Of a stretch of 64,000 nt of DNA, positions 3,794 to 24,267 are shown in pieces. The notes beneath the pieces are model-generated. The model was not told the origin of the DNA and ran no database searches. It saw only the letters and a program-made list of their open reading frames with translations. Made by a program: the position numbers and the translations under genes. Every line of letters starts with the position of its first letter. Within the stretch, counting starts at the first letter, position 1. The stretch is from Escherichia coli (GTDB lineage: Bacteria > Pseudomonadota > Gammaproteobacteria > Enterobacterales > Enterobacteriaceae): the NCBI RefSeq assembly GCF_003018235.1, contig NZ_CP027437.1, one strand, 5' to 3'.

Positions 3794-5143
3794 TTGGCGG
3801 GTTTTAACATCAAACATTGGTTTGCAGATGGCGCGTTTCGCACCATTATTCGCAATAGCGCCTGGTTAGGCTCCAGTAATGTCGTGAGCGCCTTGCTGGG
3901 TCTGTTGGCGCTCTCGTGTGCCGGTAAAGGGATGACGCCCGCCATGTTTGGCGTACTGGTGATTGTGCAATCGTACGCCAAGTCGATCAGCGATTTTATT
4001 AAGTTTCAGACATGGCAGCTGGTGGTTCAGTACGGAACGCCAGCCTTGACCAACAATAATCCGCAGCAATTTCGCAATGTTGTCTCATTTTCCTTCTCGC
4101 TGGATATCGTCAGCGGCGCGGTGGCGATTGTCGGCGGCATTGCCTTACTGCCATTCCTTTCCCATTCATTAGGTCTGGATGACCAAAGCTTTTGGCTGGC
4201 GGCGCTCTATTGCACGCTCATTCCTTCAATGGCTTCCTCCACGCCGACCGGCATTCTGCGTGCGGTAGATCGCTTTGATTTGATTGCTGTACAGCAGGCG
4301 ACGAAACCTTTTCTGCGCGCAGCGGGGAGCGTCGTAGCCTGGTATTTTGACTTTGGTTTTGCGGGTTTTGTTATTGCCTGGTACGTGTCGAATCTGGTTG
4401 GCGGCACCATGTACTGGTGGTTTGCCGCGCGCGAATTACGCCGCAGAAATATCCATAACACCTTCAAATTGAATCTGTTTGAGTCTGCCCGACACATTAA
4501 AGGCGCGTGGAGTTTTGTCTGGTCAACCAACATTGCCCACTCCATCTGGTCGGCACGTAACTCGTGCAGCACAGTGCTGGTGGGGATCGTGTTAGGACCC
4601 GCTGCCGCCGGGTTATTTAAAATCGCCATGACATTCTTCGACGCCGCCGGAACGCCAGCGGGTTTACTGGGTAAAAGTTTTTACCCAGAGGTGATGCGTT
4701 TAGATCCGCGCACCACCAGACCGTGGTTGTTAGGCGTGAAGTCCGGTTTACTGGCGGGCGGAATCGGTATTCTGGTGGCGCTCGCGGTGTTGATCGTCGG
4801 CAAGCCGCTCATTTCGCTGGTGTTTGGCGTTAAGTATCTCGAAGCGTATGACCTGATTCAGGTGATGCTGGGCGCAATTGTGATTTCGATGCTGGGCTTC
4901 CCACAGGAGTCATTGCTATTGATGGCGGGAAAACAGCGCGCTTTTCTCGTGGCGCAAACCATCGCCTCAATCGGCTACATCGTATTGCTGTTCATGTTCT
5001 GTCATCTGTTTGGCGTGCTGGGGGCTGCATTTGCTTACTTCGCTGGGCAATGTCTGGATGTGGTGTTCTCGCTAATTCCAACCTTAAAGGCATTTTTTCA
5101 GCGCCATTCCTTGCTTTATAACGCAGCCGGAGAGAAATCCTGA
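3794..5143 (+). CDS. yghQ: Polytopic inner-membrane protein, MOP-superfamily flippase-like (YghQ); true start uncertain
   Basis: 449-aa ORF with many hydrophobic segments; I recall YghQ being annotated as a putative polysaccharide/lipid flippase. K-12 protein is shorter by my recollection, so an internal start is possible. Confidence 0.7.
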   Translation: MAGFNIKHWFADGAFRTIIRNSAWLGSSNVVSALLGLLALSCAGKGMTPAMFGVLVIVQSYAKSISDFIKFQTWQLVVQYGTPALTNNNPQQFRNVVSFSFSLDIVSGAVAIVGGIALLPFLSHSLGLDDQSFWLAALYCTLIPSMASSTPTGILRAVDRFDLIAVQQATKPFLRAAGSVVAWYFDFGFAGFVIAWYVSNLVGGTMYWWFAARELRRRNIHNTFKLNLFESARHIKGAWSFVWSTNIAHSIWSARNSCSTVLVGIVLGPAAAGLFKIAMTFFDAAGTPAGLLGKSFYPEVMRLDPRTTRPWLLGVKSGLLAGGIGILVALAVLIVGKPLISLVFGVKYLEAYDLIQVMLGAIVISMLGFPQESLLLMAGKQRAFLVAQTIASIGYIVLLFMFCHLFGVLGAAFAYFAGQCLDVVFSLIPTLKAFFQRHSLLYNAAGEKS

Positions 5144-5967
5144 TGATGAGAAAATATTTCCCGCTTGAGGCTAGCGAGCGTCTATTTGTTGCGATTGAAG
5201 AAGATGATGTCGTTGATGCACAGGTCAGTTTGCCGCCGACTATCGCACTAAGTTGTACCACCGAAATCATCCATGATAATTACGCGTTATGCCTGAAATT
5301 CTGGCTGGATGGTGTTAATCGTCAGGAGCTACTGCGTTTAATCCGCAAACAGGCGAAAGGCGATGAGCTGACGACAGACGAGCGCAAAAAGTATAAATAC
5401 ATGCGAGCGCGCTACAAGCATCTGCGCTTTGCGCAACGGCTGTATTTAAAGAAGCATCAGGCCGGATTTTTATTCGGCAAAACGACCGTTTTTTTGGGGC
5501 GTTTTCAGGACGGCTTTCGTAACGGTAAGAAAAATATTGTGTCGTATTACGGCAACCTGTTACGGGTTTATTTAAGCTCTCCGGTCTGGTCGTTGGTGAA
5601 CTATTCATTACGCCATAGCCAGTTAGAAAGCGTAAGCGGTTTTATTGCCTATCGGCAAAAGCAAATGCATACCCTGAAAGAGATAATTGCCAAACCGCGA
5701 CTAACTGGCAGGGAATTTCATGATGTGCGAAAAATCATCAGCCAGCAGGTTTCTTATTACGACACCCTAAGATCGCTTGATCCTGAAAATAAAGAGGCGT
5801 TACAGATTTCCCGCTTCCTCGCCGCCATTAATGGCCTGATGGGGGATAAACACGACGACATGGTGGCGGATGATATGGAAAACCGCCAGTCGTATGATGC
5901 ACCGGTGGCGCTGGATAGCGATATTCGCCAGCGCTTAGAGCTGCTGATTTCGCGTTTTCCGCTATAA
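5143..5967 (+). CDS. Hypothetical basic protein, 274 aa, function unknown
   Basis: ORF start overlaps the yghQ stop (TGATG), indicating translational coupling; no motif I recognise. Confidence 0.55.
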   Translation: MMRKYFPLEASERLFVAIEEDDVVDAQVSLPPTIALSCTTEIIHDNYALCLKFWLDGVNRQELLRLIRKQAKGDELTTDERKKYKYMRARYKHLRFAQRLYLKKHQAGFLFGKTTVFLGRFQDGFRNGKKNIVSYYGNLLRVYLSSPVWSLVNYSLRHSQLESVSGFIAYRQKQMHTLKEIIAKPRLTGREFHDVRKIISQQVSYYDTLRSLDPENKEALQISRFLAAINGLMGDKHDDMVADDMENRQSYDAPVALDSDIRQRLELLISRFPL

Positions 5968-5975
5968 CCGGAGCA

Positions 5976-6539
5976 ATGATGTCATCTCGTTTGATTATTG
6001 CGCTGATTATCATGCTCTTAGCCCCGGGTGTGCAGGCACACAATTTCGTCACTGGCAAAACGGTTACCCCTGTTTATATCCAGGAAGGCGGCGAGCTGCT
6101 TCTGAATAGCGACGACGAAATTCACTACCAAAAGTGGAACAGCACACAGCTGGCGGGAAAAGTTCGCATTATTCAGTATATCGCCGGGCGTAAGTCGGCG
6201 AAGAAAAAGAACTCACTGTTAATTAAAGCGGTTGAAGCGGCAAACTTTCCGCAGGATCGTTTTCAGCCCACCACCATTGTGAACACCGATGATGCCATTT
6301 TTGGTACTGGCTATTTTGTCGTTGGCAAAATCGAAAAAAATAAACGCCGCTATCCGTGGGCGCAATTCGTTATTGACGGCAATGGACAGGGACGCGTTGC
6401 CTGGCGGTTGCCGGAGCAGAGTTCAACCATTCTGGTGCTGAATAAAGCCGGGCAAATTCAGTGGGCAAAGGACGGCAGCCTGACGCCGGAAGAGGTAGAA
6501 CATGTCATTGCGCTGGCGCAGAAACTGATCAATGAATAA
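5976..6539 (+). CDS. Secreted/periplasmic YtfJ-family protein
   Basis: 187-aa ORF with N-terminal signal peptide (MMSSRLIIALIIMLLAPGVQA then HNF). Blocks TTIVNTDDAI and WAKDGSLTPEEV match my memory of E. coli YtfJ. Confidence 0.6.
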   Translation: MMSSRLIIALIIMLLAPGVQAHNFVTGKTVTPVYIQEGGELLLNSDDEIHYQKWNSTQLAGKVRIIQYIAGRKSAKKKNSLLIKAVEAANFPQDRFQPTTIVNTDDAIFGTGYFVVGKIEKNKRRYPWAQFVIDGNGQGRVAWRLPEQSSTILVLNKAGQIQWAKDGSLTPEEVEHVIALAQKLINE

Positions 6540-6569
6540 AAAATTCAAAGGATTGAGGGCGTTAGTGAG

Positions 6570-7640
6570 ATGAAGCTGGTTGAACACTACATCATGCGTG
6601 GTACGCGCCGTCTGGTGCTGATTATCGTCGGTTTTCTGATCTTTATTTTCGCCAGCTACTCCGCACAGCGTTATCTGACCGAAGCGGCAAATGGGACATT
6701 AGCTCTTGATGTTGTGCTGGATATTGTTTTCTACAAGGTGCTGATTGCACTGGAGATGTTGTTACCTGTTGGACTGTATGTGTCAGTTGGCGTGACGCTA
6801 GGGCAGATGTATACCGACTCGGAAATTACCGCTATTTCTGCGGCGGGGGGCAGTCCGGGACGCTTGTACAAAGCCGTTCTTTATCTGGCGATACCGCTAA
6901 GTATTTTTGTCACCCTTCTGTCGATGTATGGTCGTCCGTGGGCTTATGCGCAGATTTATCAACTGGAGCAACAGTCACAGTCGGAGCTGGATGTTCGCCA
7001 GTTGCGGGCAAAGAAATTTAACACTAACGATAACGGACGAATGATCCTTTCGCAGACGGTTGATCAGGATAATAATCGCCTGACTGACGCGCTGATTTAT
7101 ACTTCTACTGCCAATCGAACCCGCATTTTCCGCGCCCGTTCGGTTGATGTGGTTGACCCATCACCTGAGAAACCGACCGTTATGTTGCATAACGGGACCG
7201 CCTATCTTCTCGATCATCAGGGGCGTGACGACAACGAACAGATCTACCGTAATCTGCAATTACATCTGAATCCGCTGGATCAAAGCCCTAACGTCAAACG
7301 CAAAGCAAAATCGGTCACGGAGCTGGCGCGCTCCGCCTTTCCTGCCGATCATGCCGAACTGCAATGGCGACAAAGCCGTGGCCTGACAGCATTGTTGATG
7401 GCGCTGCTGGCCATTTCATTAAGTCGGGTAAAACCGCGGCAAGGGCGATTTTCAACGTTATTGCCACTGACGTTGCTGTTTATTGCCATTTTTTATGGCG
7501 GCGACGTCTGCCGTACGCTGGTGGCTAACGGCGCGATTCCCCTCATTCCTGGTTTGTGGTTAGTACCCGGACTCATGCTAATGGGCCTGCTGATGCTGGT
7601 CGCACGCGACTTCTCATTGCTGCAGAAATTTTCCCGATGA
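6570..7640 (+). CDS. LptF/LptG-family (YjgP/YjgQ) permease, first of a pair
   Basis: 356-aa ORF with N-terminal TM helices, an LGQMYTDSEITAISAAG block resembling LptF LGKLYTESEIT, a central soluble domain and C-terminal TM helices. Confidence 0.7.
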   Translation: MKLVEHYIMRGTRRLVLIIVGFLIFIFASYSAQRYLTEAANGTLALDVVLDIVFYKVLIALEMLLPVGLYVSVGVTLGQMYTDSEITAISAAGGSPGRLYKAVLYLAIPLSIFVTLLSMYGRPWAYAQIYQLEQQSQSELDVRQLRAKKFNTNDNGRMILSQTVDQDNNRLTDALIYTSTANRTRIFRARSVDVVDPSPEKPTVMLHNGTAYLLDHQGRDDNEQIYRNLQLHLNPLDQSPNVKRKAKSVTELARSAFPADHAELQWRQSRGLTALLMALLAISLSRVKPRQGRFSTLLPLTLLFIAIFYGGDVCRTLVANGAIPLIPGLWLVPGLMLMGLLMLVARDFSLLQKFSR

Positions 7641-8716
7641 ATGTTTTCAGTCGCTATTTAATCCGTCATCTCTTTCTCGGTTTTGCCGCCGCCGCAGGGC
7701 TATTGCTGCCGCTTTTTACCACCTTCAACCTGATTAACGAACTGGATGATGTCAGCCCGGGCGGTTATCGCTGGACTCAGGCGGTGCTGGTGGTGCTGAT
7801 GACCTTACCGCGTACACTGGTCGAACTTTCGCCGTTTATCGCATTATTGGGAGGGATTGTTGGCCTGGGGCAGTTATCGAAAAACAGTGAGCTTACCGCC
7901 ATTCGCAGCACGGGGTTTTCTATCTTCCGTATTGCACTAGTGGCGCTGGTTGCCGGGATATTGTGGACTGTTTCGTTAGGCGCGATAGATGAGTGGGTGG
8001 CGTCGCCATTGCAGCAACAGGCGCTGCAAATCAAATCGACTGCCACCGCGTTGGGGGAGGACGATGACATTACCGGCAATATGCTTTGGGCCAGGCGCGG
8101 TAATGAATTTGTGACGGTGAAATCGCTGAACGAGCAGGGCCAGCCTGTGGGCGTGGAGATATTTCATTATCGCGACGATCTCTCGCTCGAATCCTACATT
8201 TTTGCACGCAGTGCCTCCATTGAAGACGACAAAACATGGATCCTGCATGGTGTGAATCATAAAAAATGGTTGAATGGCAAGGAAACGCTGGAAACATCAG
8301 ATAATCTTGCCTGGCAATCGGCCTTCACCAGTATGAATCTTGAAGAGTTATCGATGCCGGGAAATACTTTTTCTGTCCGTCAACTTAATCATTACATCCA
8401 TTATTTGCAGGAAACTGGGCAACCCAGCAGCGAATACCGCCTTGCACTGTGGGAAAAACTGGGACAACCCATCCTGACCCTGGCGATGATTTTGCTGGCT
8501 GTGCCGTTTACCTTTAGTGCCCCGCGTTCGCCTGGGATGGGTAGCCGTCTCGCTGTAGGCGTCATCGTGGGCTTACTTACCTGGATCAGCTATCAAATCA
8601 TGGTCAATCTGGGATTGCTATTTGCGTTGAGCGCACCTGTTACCGCGCTCGGTTTACCGGTAGCGTTTGTGCTGGTGGCGTTGAGCCTGGTGTATTGGTA
8701 TGACAGACAACATTAA
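7637..8716 (+). CDS. LptF/LptG-family (YjgP/YjgQ) permease, second of a pair
   Basis: Start MNVFSRYLIRH overlaps the upstream stop (ATGA at 7637-7640); SELTAIRSTGFS block resembles LptG SELVVMQASGF; same TM - periplasmic domain - TM layout. Confidence 0.7.
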   Translation: MNVFSRYLIRHLFLGFAAAAGLLLPLFTTFNLINELDDVSPGGYRWTQAVLVVLMTLPRTLVELSPFIALLGGIVGLGQLSKNSELTAIRSTGFSIFRIALVALVAGILWTVSLGAIDEWVASPLQQQALQIKSTATALGEDDDITGNMLWARRGNEFVTVKSLNEQGQPVGVEIFHYRDDLSLESYIFARSASIEDDKTWILHGVNHKKWLNGKETLETSDNLAWQSAFTSMNLEELSMPGNTFSVRQLNHYIHYLQETGQPSSEYRLALWEKLGQPILTLAMILLAVPFTFSAPRSPGMGSRLAVGVIVGLLTWISYQIMVNLGLLFALSAPVTALGLPVAFVLVALSLVYWYDRQH

Positions 8717-8750: not shown

Positions 8751-9923
8751 TTACTGCTTCAGAGTAGCGAACGCTTGAATGATGGCATCAATTTGCTCAC
8801 GACTGTGGGCAGCGTTTACGCTACAGCGCAGCAGCGTGATGCCTGCAGGCGCGGCAGGTGGCAGGATAAGATTCACATAAACGCCCAGCGAAATAAGCTC
8901 GCGCCAGATGCGTAAACCTTCCTCTTTCGAACCGATTATTACTGGCACTACCGGGCTAATATGTGAACTTAACTCATAATCCAGTTTTTGCAGACCGTCA
9001 TACAGATGGTTGGCATTATCCATCAGCTTTTGCCGCAACTCTGGTTGTGAGACAATGGTTCTTAACGACGAGCGCACGGTCGCAATGCAGGACGGAGAAG
9101 GAGAGGCGGTAAAAATATACGGGCGGCTGCCGTAGCGCAACACTTCCATCGCTTCCGAACCGACAGCAAAACCGCCAATCGAGGCCAGGCTTTTACTGAA
9201 GGTACCAACGATAATATCCACATCATCTTCAACGCCAACGGCTTCAGCCAGTCCGCGCCCCGTTGCGCCTAACACGCCAAACGAATGCGCTTCATCGACA
9301 ATCAAATAACCACCGAGACGACGTTTGATATCAACAATTTCCGCCAGCGGCGCAACGTCACCGAGCATACTGTAGATGCCTTCAACGATGATAATCGCCT
9401 CTTTTGCCCGTTCACCGAGGCGAACCATGCGCCGTTCCAGATCTTTAGCATCGTTATGGCGGAAACGAATAATTTCCGCGCCACCGAGAGAACAGGCGTC
9501 ATAAATACTGGCGTGGCTGTCGGCATCCAGTAACACCACGGCGTTATGGTCGGCAAGTGCGCTGATGACGCCTAAATTAGCGGTATAACCGGTTGAAAAA
9601 ACGATAGCGGTAGGGCGATTAAAAAACTCGGCGATCTCTTTCTCTAACGCCAGATGCGGCGCATAACTGCCGTTTGCCATACGAGAACCGGTGGTGCCGG
9701 TGCCTTGGGCCGCTAACGCTGCCTGACCTTCGGCGATGGCATCATGATTAAAGGTTAAACCGAGATAATTATTGGTCCCGGCCAGAATCACTTTTTTATT
9801 GCCGATCCGACCTTCGGTGGCGGAATACACTTCATCAATACAGGTGCCAAACGGTGTTAACCCGTTGTCACTAAATTGCAGTCGCTCGCCAGCAAGGCGC
9901 GCATATTTATCGTATAGCCCCAT
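8751..9923 (-). CDS. PLP-dependent alpha-oxoamine synthase, serine-palmitoyltransferase-like (Spt/Kbl/BioF family)
   Basis: 390-aa ORF with the PLP-lysine motif GTFSKSLASIGGF and DEAHSFG, as in serine palmitoyltransferase and 8-amino-7-oxononanoate synthase. Confidence 0.8.
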   Translation of the reverse strand: MGLYDKYARLAGERLQFSDNGLTPFGTCIDEVYSATEGRIGNKKVILAGTNNYLGLTFNHDAIAEGQAALAAQGTGTTGSRMANGSYAPHLALEKEIAEFFNRPTAIVFSTGYTANLGVISALADHNAVVLLDADSHASIYDACSLGGAEIIRFRHNDAKDLERRMVRLGERAKEAIIIVEGIYSMLGDVAPLAEIVDIKRRLGGYLIVDEAHSFGVLGATGRGLAEAVGVEDDVDIIVGTFSKSLASIGGFAVGSEAMEVLRYGSRPYIFTASPSPSCIATVRSSLRTIVSQPELRQKLMDNANHLYDGLQKLDYELSSHISPVVPVIIGSKEEGLRIWRELISLGVYVNLILPPAAPAGITLLRCSVNAAHSREQIDAIIQAFATLKQ

Positions 9924-10171
9924 TATTTATTCTCCAGCCATGGAAGTAGTGTTTCCATTAATTGCGCAGGGGTTTTGACATCCAGCAGAATATTAATAGG
10001 AATGGAAATATCGAATCTGTCTTCCAGCATCATTAAGAGATCCATCACTTTGATCGACTCCAGGCCAAGATCGTTGACGAGATCGCTGTCGGGCTTAATT
10101 TCCACACCGTTTTCGACCAAATCCTGTAAACAGGAAAGGATGTAATCCATTACTATTTCACGATTTACCAT
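9923..10171 (-). CDS. Acyl carrier protein
   Basis: 82-aa acidic ORF with phosphopantetheine-attachment motif DLGLESIKVMDL; its stop overlaps the Spt start (TAATG). Confidence 0.75.
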   Translation of the reverse strand: MVNREIVMDYILSCLQDLVENGVEIKPDSDLVNDLGLESIKVMDLLMMLEDRFDISIPINILLDVKTPAQLMETLLPWLENK

Positions 10172-10202
10172 AGAAACGTTAACACACCTTTAAACAAGAC
10201 AA

Positions 10203-11117
10203 TCAAAATAGCCCGTTGCGTAATGCGTGTTCCAGGCTAATCCCGGGAAACCAATTAATATCTTCAGAAATACGGTTATTACTTGCCGACCAGTCGGCAT
10301 GAGTTAATTCACGGATTTTCGAACGAGTCAGCATCGGTTCTTTACCCGCCAGACGGCTCAACGCGGTACTGATATCCGCAAGGCAGGTGAGTAGCGGCAG
10401 AGGAATACCGACCATCCGCACGGAACCGCAACGGGCGTCGGCGGCAAGCTGTCTTACGCGTTGCCAGTCATAGCCTCCGGCGACGCCATCGCATAATTCA
10501 TAGGTTTGCGTCTGTACAGTTTCGGCGCTTAACCACTGACCCACTGCTTGCGCAAAATCGGTGACGTGAAGAAAAGAGAGCTGTGTCTCTGGCGTGCCAA
10601 GTCGTGGCAGCAGGCCGCGCAGCATCCAGTCAAACAGCGGTTTTAACTCTTTATCGCCGGGACCATACACGGCTGTCGGGCGAAAAACGCCCAGCGTAAT
10701 TTCATCAGCCATTGCAGTCAGCCGTTGTTCGGCGACGTGTTTGGAATTTGCGTACCAGGAGAGTTCGGGATGGCGCGCCGCCAGCGAAGAGATAAACAGA
10801 AAACGTTGGCAAAAGCCGCTCTCTTTTGCCGCTTGCATCAGGCGCAGGCTGCCGTCAACGTTACAGCGGGTAAAAATCTCTTCTTTGTGTCCGCGCACTT
10901 GTCCGGCGCAATGGACCACCGCGCTGGCTCCGGCAACCAGTTCGCTAAGCGAATGTGTATCTTCCAGCGAACCGCGCACCCAGATGAGATTATCATTGAC
11001 GTGAGCGCGGGCAGTACGCGTCAATGCGCGAACGTGAAAGCCGCGGGCGAGCAGGTTATCGATAATATATTTACCGATAAACCCGGTAGCGCCCGTCACC
11101 GCGACAGTTTGATTCAT
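10203..11117 (-). CDS. NAD(P)-dependent epimerase/dehydratase-family (extended SDR) reductase, CerR-like
   Basis: 304-aa ORF with N-terminal Rossmann motif VTGATGFIG and catalytic YxxxK (YANSK). Confidence 0.75.
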   Translation of the reverse strand: MNQTVAVTGATGFIGKYIIDNLLARGFHVRALTRTARAHVNDNLIWVRGSLEDTHSLSELVAGASAVVHCAGQVRGHKEEIFTRCNVDGSLRLMQAAKESGFCQRFLFISSLAARHPELSWYANSKHVAEQRLTAMADEITLGVFRPTAVYGPGDKELKPLFDWMLRGLLPRLGTPETQLSFLHVTDFAQAVGQWLSAETVQTQTYELCDGVAGGYDWQRVRQLAADARCGSVRMVGIPLPLLTCLADISTALSRLAGKEPMLTRSKIRELTHADWSASNNRISEDINWFPGISLEHALRNGLF

Positions 11118-12823
11118 GCCAGGGATTCCTGCACATGAAGGCTTGCAGCATAACGTTTTTTCGCTTCCGCACGGGCAGGCTTGCCGGAGGACGTTCGGGG
11201 AATACTGTGGGGCGGCAACAGATCGATAGCCGCTGTTACGCCAAATTCGCTTTGGATCCGTGCTACCAGTGCGTGGATAAGCTGCCCACGACGTTCTTCG
11301 TCGCTGATCCTACACTGGATCTGCAGAATGATTTTTTCCTGGGCGGTAACAAAAGCAATCGCATCGCCAGAATGAATTTCCGGTTCCTGTTCCGCAATAT
11401 ATTCAATATCCTGCGGCCAGATATTACGGCCACGAATAATAATCAGATCTTTAATGCGTCCGGTGACATACAGATAACCGTCCAGCAGATAACCGAGGTC
11501 GCCGGTGTCTAACCAGCCCGTCGCGGCAATCTCGTCTTGTGAAATCTGGTCGCCAAAGTAACCGCTCATCAGGCTAGGGCCGGAGATGCAAATATGGCCT
11601 ACCACACGTTCCGCGACAGGTATACCTGCTTCATTGCGGATTTCAATGCCATGTTCCGGCAACGCTTTACCGCAGTTGACGAAAGTCGATACGGCGCGTG
11701 TTTCAGCATCCGGCGCGACGGCTTTGCCCTGATATTCGAGGATGTCGCGATCCACTTCGTTAACCACAACCCCGGAAGCTTCATCAGAGAAGCTGACAGC
11801 CAGCGCATTTTCTGCCAGTCCGTAGCACGGCATGAAAGTTTTATCGTCAAAGTTGACCTGACGGAAACATTCAGCGAATTGATGGAGTTGTTCTGCGGAG
11901 ATGGGTTCTGCACCAATACCAGCGACGCGCCAGCAGGAAAGATCCAGTTCAGCGAGATCTTTTTCATTCACGCGGCGCTGGCACAATTCATAGCCAAACG
12001 GCGGCGCAACGGAAACGGTGCCGCGATTTTTACTGATCAATTTAAGCCATTGCAGAGGACGCATGGCAAAATCCTGAGTGCGCAAATAATCTACTGAAAG
12101 CTGCGTGGCGACGGGGGGCAGGAGAAAGCCGACCAGTCCCATATCATGGTAGAAAGGCAGCCAGGAGACGCAGCGGTCGCCAGGGCGTAATTTAATGCCA
12201 TCGTGGCTTATAGCACGTAGATTAGCCATCACTTCGCGATGGGTGATAATGACGCCACGGGGAAAACGGGTGCTGCCGGAGGTGTACTGGAGGTAGGCGA
12301 TATCGTTCGGAACTGGACGCTGGAGCGCAACATCGGCTTCCGGTAATGCCTTAAACCAGGCGTGGCTTAAAACATGTAATTCGGGGTTGTTATGCGTAGC
12401 GGCATTGACCAGTGGCAACCACTCATCACCAGTGATAATGGCTGCGGGCTGGCAACTTGCCAGTAAACCCTGCAGTTTGGCGCTCCAGGAATCCCGCTGA
12501 CCGACGCCCATTGGAATCGCCAACGGGACGGCGACTAAGCCGGCATACTGGCAGGAAAAAAAAGCCTCTACGAACCCGCTACTGGTTTCGGCAATCAGCG
12601 CCACGCGATCGCCTTTTTTCAGGTTCAGCGATAACAACCGCTTCGCACCAGCTTCGGCACGCGCTTTTAACGTCTGATATTCCAGTTGATCTTCAAGTTG
12701 GCAACGTCTGTCATAAAAATTCATTCCGGCGCTACTCAGAGCGGCGTAGTCCAAAGCATCAACCAGCGTTGGAAAATCGGCATAGCGCATAGGTAGGGAA
12801 TGCGTAAAGATTTTATTAGACAT
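11114..12823 (-). CDS. Fatty-acyl-AMP ligase / acyl-ACP synthetase (AMP-binding superfamily)
   Basis: Adenylation motifs YTSGSTRFPRGV and TGDLGY...GRIKDLIIIRGRNI; stop overlaps the reductase start (ATGA). Start taken at the ATG for MSNKIF; the ORF track extends to 12850 on a TTG. Confidence 0.8.
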   Translation of the reverse strand: MSNKIFTHSLPMRYADFPTLVDALDYAALSSAGMNFYDRRCQLEDQLEYQTLKARAEAGAKRLLSLNLKKGDRVALIAETSSGFVEAFFSCQYAGLVAVPLAIPMGVGQRDSWSAKLQGLLASCQPAAIITGDEWLPLVNAATHNNPELHVLSHAWFKALPEADVALQRPVPNDIAYLQYTSGSTRFPRGVIITHREVMANLRAISHDGIKLRPGDRCVSWLPFYHDMGLVGFLLPPVATQLSVDYLRTQDFAMRPLQWLKLISKNRGTVSVAPPFGYELCQRRVNEKDLAELDLSCWRVAGIGAEPISAEQLHQFAECFRQVNFDDKTFMPCYGLAENALAVSFSDEASGVVVNEVDRDILEYQGKAVAPDAETRAVSTFVNCGKALPEHGIEIRNEAGIPVAERVVGHICISGPSLMSGYFGDQISQDEIAATGWLDTGDLGYLLDGYLYVTGRIKDLIIIRGRNIWPQDIEYIAEQEPEIHSGDAIAFVTAQEKIILQIQCRISDEERRGQLIHALVARIQSEFGVTAAIDLLPPHSIPRTSSGKPARAEAKKRYAASLHVQESLA

Positions 12824-13194
12824 ATACACCACGAAAAAATTGGATATCAAAAATAAAATGACAATAATGCGGTGGATTATATAGGCATAAAAGATAAATG
12901 AGATAGTATTTTCATCAGTGTGAAAATGAACATTGATTTAAATAATGAGTTTGAGTTTTTTTGTTTTTATTGTGAATGATATTTAATTTATGAATGTATT
13001 AAGAAGAAGCCTTGTCCGGTCGCCTTAAATCGACAAAAGGCATTGTGGCGCTTCTGTGTAGTCTCTGACCTTATCGTAATCATTAATAAATGCTATTTAT
13101 TCGTCGTTTGTATTCATTGGGTTGATTATTAAGGTGCCGTTCGTTGCTGTTGCAACCTGTTTGTCACCGTTAATTATTTGTTACCCACAGAACT
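12824..13194. promoter_or_regulatory. AT-rich divergent control region between the lipid operon (-) and yghO (+)
   Basis: ~370 bp of visibly AT-rich non-coding DNA with A/T tracts between two divergently oriented starts; typical of divergent promoters and H-NS-bound regions. No specific site identified. Confidence 0.45.
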
Positions 13195-14337
13195 ATGGAA
13201 TGCGATCTGCTGATGATTAAAATTGAAAAAGTAATTAATAAAAATGACCTTAAGGCATTTATCGCTTTTCCGTCATCACTTTATCCCGACGATCCAAACT
13301 GGATACCCCCTTTATTCATTGAACGCAACGAGCATTTGTCTGCGAAAAATCCGGGGACGGACCATATCATCTGGCAGGCGTGGGTGGCAAAAAAAGCCGG
13401 GCAGATAGTTGGGCGAATTACCGCGCAAATCGATACCTTGCACCGTGAGCGTTACGGTGAAGATACCGGTCATTTCGGCATGATTGACGCCATTGATGAT
13501 CCGCAGGTTTTTGCCGCGTTGTTTGGCGCAGCGGAAGCGTGGTTGAAGTCACAAGGAGCAAGTAAGATCAGCGGGCCTTTCAGCCTGAATATCAATCAGG
13601 AAAGCGGATTACTGATTGAAGGTTTCGATACACCACCCTGTGCGATGATGCCGCACGGTAAACCGTGGTATGCCGCGCATATTGAACAATTGGGTTATCA
13701 CAAAGGCATTGATTTACTGGCGTGGTGGATGCAGCGAACCGATCTCACTTTCTCTCCGGCGCTAAAAAAACTGATGGATCAGGTGCGTAAGAAGGTGACC
13801 ATTCGCTGCATCAATCGCCAGCGGTTTGCCGAAGAGATGCAGATCCTGCGTGAGATTTTCAACTCTGGCTGGCAGCACAACTGGGGATTTGTGCCGTTTA
13901 CCGAACATGAATTCGCGACCATGGGCGATCAACTTAAATATCTGGTGCCGGACGATATGATCTACATCGCTGAGATTGATTCTGCACCCTGCGCGTTTAT
14001 TGTCGGCTTGCCAAACATCAACGAGGCGATTGCCGATCTGAACGGATCGCTCTTTCCCTTCGGCTGGGCAAAATTGCTGTGGCGTTTAAAAGTCAGCGGT
14101 GTGCGAACTGCGCGAGTACCGCTGATGGGCGTGCGGGACGAGTATCAGTTTAGCCGCATCGGCCCGGTGATTGCGCTGTTATTGATTGAAGCCTTACGCG
14201 ATCCGTTTGCCCGCCGGAAGATCGATGCGCTGGAAATGTCATGGATCCTCGAAACCAATACAGGCATGAATAACATGCTGGAACGCATTGGGGCGGAGCC
14301 GTACAAGCGTTACCGATTGTATGAAAAGCAGATTTAA
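13195..14337 (+). CDS. yghO: YghO, candidate N-acyltransferase (possibly GNAT-like), intact here
   Basis: 380-aa ORF next to glcC, which is where yghO sits in E. coli. The acyltransferase assignment is from recollection of annotation and context, not from a motif I can verify. Start could be M7 (MIKIEKV). Confidence 0.65.
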   Translation: MECDLLMIKIEKVINKNDLKAFIAFPSSLYPDDPNWIPPLFIERNEHLSAKNPGTDHIIWQAWVAKKAGQIVGRITAQIDTLHRERYGEDTGHFGMIDAIDDPQVFAALFGAAEAWLKSQGASKISGPFSLNINQESGLLIEGFDTPPCAMMPHGKPWYAAHIEQLGYHKGIDLLAWWMQRTDLTFSPALKKLMDQVRKKVTIRCINRQRFAEEMQILREIFNSGWQHNWGFVPFTEHEFATMGDQLKYLVPDDMIYIAEIDSAPCAFIVGLPNINEAIADLNGSLFPFGWAKLLWRLKVSGVRTARVPLMGVRDEYQFSRIGPVIALLLIEALRDPFARRKIDALEMSWILETNTGMNNMLERIGAEPYKRYRLYEKQI

Positions 14338-23783: not shown

Positions 23784-23792
23784 ATCAATAAT

Positions 23793-23828
23793 GCCGGATG
23801 ATCGTTAATATCATCCGGCTTCATTTAC
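23793..23828 (+). terminator. Rho-independent terminator after glcA
   Basis: Perfect 10-bp inverted repeat gccggatgat / atcatccggc (23793-23802, 23810-23819) with 7-nt loop, then a T-rich tract. Confidence 0.7.
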
Positions 23829-24267
23829 ATTATTCTGTCTTATTAATTGAAAATTATTTCTCGCTTTATTATCCATGCGGCAATAATGTTTTGTGTTTAG
23901 ATAACCTGCTAAATAATTAAGATCGTGAGAACATCTATTTTTTATCACGCGAAACAAGTCTGTACTAATTATGTTCGCTTGATGAGCAAACACCGTTCTA
24001 TCTGTTGCTTTTGCAATCTTAATCGTTAAAACTACCAACGAATTTATATAGTTACGTTGTGAAAAGTTGTTAATTTTTTGTTTAATGAAATTTCGTAAAA
24101 ATCACCAGCCAGACATCGAATAGGGGTTATTCTTATAAATTTCACCTGCTTTGCTATCAATGATGCCGTTTTATTAAGAATGGAGGAAGTTATTAGAGAA
24201 GATAAAGCATAAAACTATTTCTCCCAGTTACGAATTTTTTAACATTGTTTTGTCACTTGCGTTATTA
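23829..24267. promoter_or_regulatory. AT-rich upstream region of sslE/yghJ; probable promoter of the sslE-pppA-yghG-gsp transcription unit
   Basis: ~440 bp of AT-rich non-coding DNA upstream of the first gene of a co-directional, closely packed cluster. This operon is reported to be H-NS silenced. Confidence 0.45.

Follow-up and report, generated by a model that had tools for sequence, protein, structure and literature searches.

Does Escherichia coli make ceramide, and when? Gut-bacterial sphingolipids are known to affect host immunity, and E. coli is assumed not to produce any. Of the complete E. coli genomes, 76% nevertheless have an intact five-gene ceramide cluster, which is under purifying selection and encodes enzymes that are active when overexpressed; no native ceramide product of E. 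coli is known to have been reported, only overexpression data. The two halves of the pathway have to be turned on at a single place, the gap between the divergent genes aasR and yghO, and knowing what holds this gap off (H-NS, a missing activator, or both) would make the question of when E. coli makes ceramide a testable one. We note that the interest of the gap comes mainly from the pathway that it controls; as a sequence feature it is ordinary.

Results

The gap lies between the two units of the ceramide cluster

Our analysis covered a window of 64 kb of E. coli DNA, whose coordinates are used throughout. The aasR-epi(cerR-like)-acpR-spt operon occupies 8751-12823 on the minus strand (RefSeq annotation and PMC9386255) and consists of aasR, encoding a fatty acyl-AMP ligase (11114-12823, 52.7% GC), the cerR-like epi, encoding an NAD-dependent epimerase/dehydratase (10203-11117, 54.6% GC), acpR, encoding an acyl carrier protein (9923-10171, 249 nt, 40.6% GC), and spt, encoding serine palmitoyltransferase (8751-9923, 51.6% GC). 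On the plus strand, yghO (13195-14337, 49.8% GC) encodes a GNAT-type N-acyltransferase homologous to Caulobacter CC_1154 (aca/bCerS). The BL21(DE3) genes studied by Padilla-Gómez 2022 (PMC9386255) are aasR (ECD_02851), epi (ECD_02852), acpR (ECD_02853) and spt (ECD_02854); the same work enters yghO (ECD_02850) as the acyl-CoA N-acyltransferase “aca”, counterpart of CC_1154 (bCerS), and describes the five dihydroceramide genes as clustered in Caulobacter and E. coli BL21 only. Co-expression of AasREc, AcpREc and SPTEc gave 3-oxo-sphinganine, and empty-vector extracts of BL21(DE3) showed no 3-oxo-sphinganine or SPT activity (PMC9386255).

Annotation, tblastn across genera and the literature assignment of ECD_02850-02854 place homologs of all five cluster genes here (spt, acpR, aasR, epi/cerR and aca/bCerS). 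The gap sits inside this published five-gene dihydroceramide cluster, between its two transcription units; the genes themselves and their enzymology were previously known. Relative to other Escherichia species, spt, acpR, epi and yghO show dN/dS of 0.03-0.12 at dS of 0.10-0.37, so the cluster genes are kept by selection and must be expressed somewhere in nature. Their GC content is 47-55%, the short acpR being the sole low-GC gene; in composition the locus is no foreign island. No candidate regulator gene is annotated by RefSeq inside the cluster. Convergent with spt, a plus-strand run at 3794-8716 encodes a flippase-like “LPS biosynthesis protein” (yghQ), a hypothetical protein, a YtfJ-family protein and LptF-like and LptG-like permeases, and may be a candidate export system for the ceramide product.

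Boundaries and base composition of the gap

The preliminary description had placed divergent starts at both edges of the stretch, and 12824-13194 is indeed the exact 371-nt gap from the aasR ATG (minus strand, 12823) to the annotated yghO ATG (plus strand, 13195). Annotation of the start codons themselves is less settled. RefSeq begins aasR at 12823 in strains ST2747, W and APEC and at 12790, 33 nt further in, in BL21-AI, MNCRE44, THO-010, 042 and CFT073; a weak GGTG lies upstream of the former start only. The yghO start is likely mis-set, as homologs in other genera have 374 aa and their first residue corresponds to Met7 of the E. coli protein (13213), which by this comparison is the probable real start. 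A TAAGG ribosome-binding site precedes yghO in other genera, and no Shine-Dalgarno sequence was found for E. coli yghO at either 13195 or 13213. With this disagreement over start codons the real untranslated gap is 371-423 nt. The 601 nt around the gap are 100% identical to strain ST2747.

At 32.1% GC (67.9% AT over 371 nt) the gap is far below the window as a whole (51.8%), its coding DNA (52.9%) and its pooled intergenic DNA (41.2%), and only 0.56% of 371-nt sliding windows are this AT-rich. The description of the gap as one of the most AT-rich non-coding stretches therefore holds, in that its GC ranks fourth lowest among 23 intergenic regions, and it is not unique: pppA|gspS2 (27.7%, 65 nt), yghT|yghS (30.1%, 173 nt) and glcA|sslE (31.0%, 484 nt) all have lower GC. 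The yghT|yghS gap (2074-2246) is, like aasR|yghO, divergent. A/T tracts were also correctly described (A6, A5, T7 and T5), with runs of A or T not exceeding 13 nt. The short repeats described alongside them did not bear scrutiny, since searches for direct, inverted and tandem repeats gave nothing above chance; they turned up a single 2.2-copy T-rich 8-9-mer and a handful of imperfect matches, two-copy or inverted, in some of which one arm falls within coding DNA.

AT-richness is unevenly spread along the gap. The AT-richest core, at 12924-12998, falls to 18% GC in 50-nt windows (82% AT over 75 nt), includes the T7 and T5 tracts at 12956-12968 and is placed some 55-130 nt upstream of where aasR transcription is predicted to start. 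Beside it, a GC-neutral central island (12999-13073) has 44-46% GC and is the most divergent segment between allele classes. The gap is a real, correctly delimited and ordinary kind of AT-rich divergent promoter region.

Constraint and allele exchange within Escherichia

We aligned 10 Escherichia gaps from several species, namely those of the window, BL21-AI, W, APEC IMT5155, ST131 MNCRE44, THO-010, E. whittamii and three other Escherichia lineages. The alignment divides the gap in two. In the aasR-proximal block (12824-12915, read on the minus strand as core promoter plus a 5' UTR of about 46 nt), 96% of columns are invariant. Compared with strain SCPM-O-B-8794, 2 of 92 positions differ in this block and 100 of 279 elsewhere in the gap (binomial P ~2.5e-15). 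These 92 nt are far better conserved than synonymous sites and are thereby shown to be under strong purifying selection. The block stops about 10 nt further upstream than the predicted -35 hexamer, at a perfect palindrome, ATTTTCA-N6-TGAAAAT (12908-12927), centred some 48 nt before the predicted aasR start. This palindrome is lineage-specific, because its right arm is altered (TGATATT or CGATATT) in ST131, THO-010 and other Escherichia.

The remaining, yghO-proximal 279 nt (12916-13194) evolve fast and occur as two allele classes of 73-80% identity. This part is 14% diverged in ST131, with flanks 98% identical, and 30% diverged in THO-010, with flanks 97-98% identical. In THO-010 the gap allele shares 95% identity with the one in Escherichia sp. 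E1V33, and the flanking genes keep their 97-98% identity to the window; the swapped intergenic segment corresponds to positions 7190-7585 of the THO-010 locus (L007) against 12916-13194 of the window. Gap alleles of 60-80% identity occur in about 26 of 4160 E. coli genomes. Most of the gap changes at about the synonymous rate (28-36% differences versus dS 0.22-0.37), and the variable 279 nt do so between species and change faster than that within E. coli, a pattern that indicates relaxed constraint together with recombination. Outside the proximal block there is one sole long invariant island, TGAACATTGATT at 12927-12938.

Two smaller polymorphisms were seen. The T-run at 12956-12962, which is T7 in both the window and BL21, is one nucleotide shorter (T6) in W and APEC, and it falls within a spacer that belongs to a secondary promoter candidate on the minus strand; BL21-AI carries a 5-nt ACAGA duplication directly 5' of the yghO ATG. 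What appears to be new here is this constraint map, a near-invariant aasR promoter block beside a hypervariable, exchangeable remainder. Also new are the placement of the gap in the ceramide cluster, the weak promoter and translation signals and the conserved box in other genera described below.

Promoter and factor-site predictions

The top-scoring promoter candidate in the region (score 10.2) has a perfect predicted -10 hexamer, TATAAT, for aasR (12876-12881, minus strand) and, at 17-nt spacing, a poor -35, ATCTCA (12899-12904, minus strand, 3/6). Transcription would start near 12869, giving a 46-nt leader that ends in a weak Shine-Dalgarno-like GGTG (12827-12830, minus strand), 3 nt before the aasR ATG at 12823. 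Composition-matched shuffles reach a higher best score on average (11.6 +/- 1.4) than this best sigma-70 match. Candidates on the yghO side score only 6.8-8.5, all under the shuffle expectation and none a convincing match, and the gap holds no strong sigma-70 promoter. By these predictions both units look intrinsically weak or activator-dependent.

We also scored 18 consensus sequences (Fur, CRP, FNR, IHF, CpxR, PhoP, PhoB, RcsAB, marbox, Lrp, ArcA, OmpR, NarL, LexA, FadR, Fis, H-NS and an enterobacterial 15-mer), none of which was significant in the gap after correction for multiple testing. Just upstream of yghO, a candidate ArcA-like direct repeat, CGTTAATTATTTGTTA (13168-13183, plus strand, 13/16), has an invariant 3' half, TTTGTTA; its score was reached in 7 of 300 shuffles, which is non-significant with 18 motifs tried. 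A Fur-box look-alike noticed by eye, TAATCATTA (13077-13085), matched at 12/19, the chance level, and was discarded. The available part of the ChIP supplementary data for ETEC H10407, a strain that may or may not carry the cluster, contains no CRP or MarA target near the cluster genes.

The same junction beyond Escherichia

The divergent aasR|yghO junction is kept in Enterobacterales, Pseudomonas and marine (Halieaceae-type) Gammaproteobacteria, in more than 60 genomes. Throughout the Enterobacterales genomes examined, the gap spans 288-1113 nt, lacks any large or recurrent ORF and lies 7-27 GC points under its flanks; in E. coli it contains no ORF of at least 40 aa. The placement of a “control hub” in the preliminary description is borne out to this extent, that two divergent units of one lipid pathway share the gap as their upstream region and that the junction is conserved across genera. 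No homology of the E. coli gap was found outside Escherichia past the coding edges.

Most other Enterobacterales share a strictly conserved 15-mer, GCATTAAGTGGTAAA, with 19 matches at no more than 1 mismatch in the 1.08 Mb of loci compared, against 0.09 expected. Every copy lies in the aasR|yghO gap and on the yghO strand, mostly 300-350 nt upstream of yghO (for instance at L013:6885, L018:5866 and L052:6689 among the non-Escherichia Enterobacterales loci L012-L073), and it is absent from Escherichia. The 15-mer has partners, AAAAGTGAAyGnyTCATTTAA about 35 nt before it and GATAAT about 17 nt after it, and in some genera a palindrome, AGCATAATATGCCTAACG, lies further downstream. No Rfam family was found for the region of the 15-mer in eight other genera. 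Given its distribution, the 15-mer may be the site of a dedicated regulator; by eye it is marbox-like (GCAy-N7-TAAA), which we regard as a lead.

Distribution among strains

The gap is present at a coverage of at least 80% in 4136 of 5426 complete E. coli genomes (76%), with no annotated feature within it. EAEC 042 and UPEC CFT073 carry it; in CFT073 (NC_004431.1) it lies at 3544845-3545253, between yghO (3543702-3544844) and C_RS17605-17620 (3545254-3549305), and the corresponding genes of 042 are EC042_RS17425-17445. K-12 lacks it, having an IS5 between a truncated yghQ and a 5'-truncated yghO, and this truncated yghQ is all that K-12 keeps of the export-like run at 3794-8716. O157:H7 Sakai lacks the whole segment and has SpLE3 in its place, next to pheV. 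At that site SpLE3 also removed glc, sslE-gsp and the ceramide cluster. The tRNA-Phe (pheV) site of the window, at 40899-40974 with its neighbours, is empty; ST2747 carries a kps capsule island there.

The preliminary description had suggested that silencing may explain why any product has gone unnoticed. There is a simpler reason than H-NS, namely that K-12 (IS5 deletion) and O157 Sakai (SpLE3) are without the cluster, and the lack of the cluster in K-12 is alone sufficient to explain an unnoticed product. Since the region is absent from K-12, public K-12 ChIP data do not cover it, and it is also a blind spot of K-12-based regulatory atlases.

Discussion

Possible silencing by H-NS and StpA

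The base composition had been called typical of H-NS-silenced accessory loci. H-NS/StpA silencing is plausible here, a reasonable hypothesis drawn from composition: H-NS filaments need just about 0.2 kb (PMC9765446), and the composition and length of the gap are adequate for an H-NS patch, with AT well above average over at least about 200 bp. The low-GC, foreign composition of silenced genes is not seen in the cluster (spt, epi, aasR and yghO have 49.8-54.6% GC), and because the coding DNA is not AT-rich any H-NS patch would be short and might not silence. Using tCGATAAATT as the high-affinity nucleation motif (Lang 2007), we found one 2-mismatch match in the gap (12985-12994), which is at chance level; a proven target, sslE, also has one, so the result is uninformative. 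Across the window there are 74 matches versus 62 +/- 7 expected. No link between yghO or the other cluster genes and H-NS was found in the literature. The native cluster looks silent in the laboratory, as judged from BL21 extracts, which represent one strain and one medium and are no proof of transcriptional silence. We consider it rather probable that H-NS/StpA would be found to occupy the gap, and put forward more tentatively, as something short of an even bet, that H-NS would be the main cause of the silence.

A proposed role for the gap

Our best explanation, to which we give an even chance, is that the gap is a shared divergent promoter and regulatory region with nucleoid-protein silencing of the dihydroceramide cluster. 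Leftward it would drive aasR-epi-acpR-spt, the unit that makes 3-oxo-sphinganine and contains the reductase, and rightward yghO, the N-acyltransferase. The 92-nt block would hold the aasR core promoter, with its perfect -10 and poor -35, and a short leader, and the AT-rich, fast-evolving 279 nt would be a platform for nucleoid proteins (H-NS/StpA, possibly Fis/IHF). Nucleoid proteins, weak promoters and weak yghO translation signals might together keep both units nearly off in standard culture, until some signal or activator relieves the repression.

Going further, one might speculate that a cryptic ceramide pathway is turned on and off at the gap, that the architecture of the gap, an ultra-conserved aasR promoter beside a hypervariable, exchangeable yghO-side segment, reflects lineage-specific rewiring of the timing of the acyltransferase versus the long-chain-base enzymes, and that Escherichia lost the dedicated regulator site formed in other Enterobacterales by GCATTAAGTGGTAAA and its partner boxes and relies on nucleoid-protein silencing instead. 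We rate this extended version as improbable.

Several alternatives must be set beside nucleoid-protein silencing. The promoters might be activator-limited: both would be weak and need a dedicated activator or condition (for instance envelope stress, oxygen via ArcA, or phosphate limitation), H-NS would play little or no part, and the AT-richness would be a by-product of promoter-rich, unconstrained intergenic DNA. This is as simple a rival as H-NS silencing and agrees with much of what we found, including a best sigma-70 match under the shuffle expectation with its poor -35, a conserved block ending about 10 nt upstream of that -35 at a palindrome, coding DNA that is not AT-rich, an H-NS motif at chance level, the ArcA-like repeat at 13168-13183, and, before yghO in other Enterobacterales, a strand-specific 15-mer that resembles the site of a dedicated factor. 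Against it, the cluster contains no candidate regulator gene, 0 of 18 consensus motifs were significant after multiple testing, the 15-mer is missing from Escherichia itself, and no nearby CRP or MarA target appears in what is available of the H10407 supplementary data, with the reservation on cluster carriage already given. We regard activator limitation as possible, though less likely than not.

Alternatively, the gap could be an ordinary spacer that merely houses two housekeeping-type promoters, both units being constitutive at a low level. The three other intergenic regions of the window that are equally or more AT-rich, and the near-synonymous rate of change over most of the gap, are what such a spacer would predict. 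It is harder to square with a 92-nt block conserved far beyond synonymous sites, with a gap that remains long (288-1113 nt) and free of any large or recurrent ORF in all Enterobacterales genomes examined, and with BL21 extracts that lack SPT activity, and we think it quite unlikely. The remaining idea is that the gap encodes a structured cis-regulatory RNA (a riboswitch or leader), an sRNA or a small protein. A long yghO leader is possible, other genera have conserved boxes about 300-350 nt upstream of yghO, and a 13-codon ORF, MSLSFFVFIVNDI, can be read at 12945-12986. That ORF is frame-shifted by the T7/T6 polymorphism in W and APEC and is not conserved. Moreover, 12000-14000 gave no Rfam match even at E<=10, only noise, and in eight other genera no Rfam family matched within the gap at the gathering threshold, an unrelated TPP riboswitch lying outside it. 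Single-sequence folds of four segments had z-scores of +0.2 to -0.9, and the alignment fold of the central island had a consensus energy of -1.96 kcal/mol with little covariation. We consider an encoded RNA or small protein near refuted for E. coli.

Comparison with known systems

Caulobacter crescentus has the same five enzymes, and its spt (CC_1162), acpR (CC_1163), epi/cerR (CC_1164) and aasR (CC_1165) are adjacent as in E. coli. Judged by locus numbers, its aca/bCerS (CC_1154) is several genes off, whereas yghO of E. coli divergently abuts aasR.

The exchange of gap alleles recalls intergenic-region switching, which Oren and co-workers are said to have described in 2014 as horizontal replacement of promoters between conserved genes. 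THO-010 likewise has a gap with an E1V33-like allele between typical E. coli flanks. The swap in THO-010 differs in that it leaves the aasR core promoter untouched and is confined to the distal and yghO-proximal part.

With regard to silencing, bgl, proU and csgD-csgB are the classical H-NS-controlled regulatory regions, in which a short AT-rich patch lies between flanks of normal composition and silencing is relieved by specific signals or factors. They have demonstrated nucleation sites and are derepressed in hns mutants, whereas the aasR|yghO gap is likened to them by its composition. A close comparison is provided by the window itself, 11 kb away, in the promoter region of sslE (yghJ; the glcA|sslE gap, 23784-24267). 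The DNA of this promoter is curved, and H-NS and StpA bind to it and repress it as a function of temperature (PMC5012682). The sslE region is unidirectional and has a mapped promoter, a Fis site and H-NS footprints, whereas the aasR|yghO gap is divergent and is so far known from its sequence. The two are the same in composition, with 31.0% GC for sslE and 32.1% for the aasR|yghO gap, and in both sslE and the ceramide cluster AT-rich DNA stands before an envelope-related operon that some strains have and others lack.
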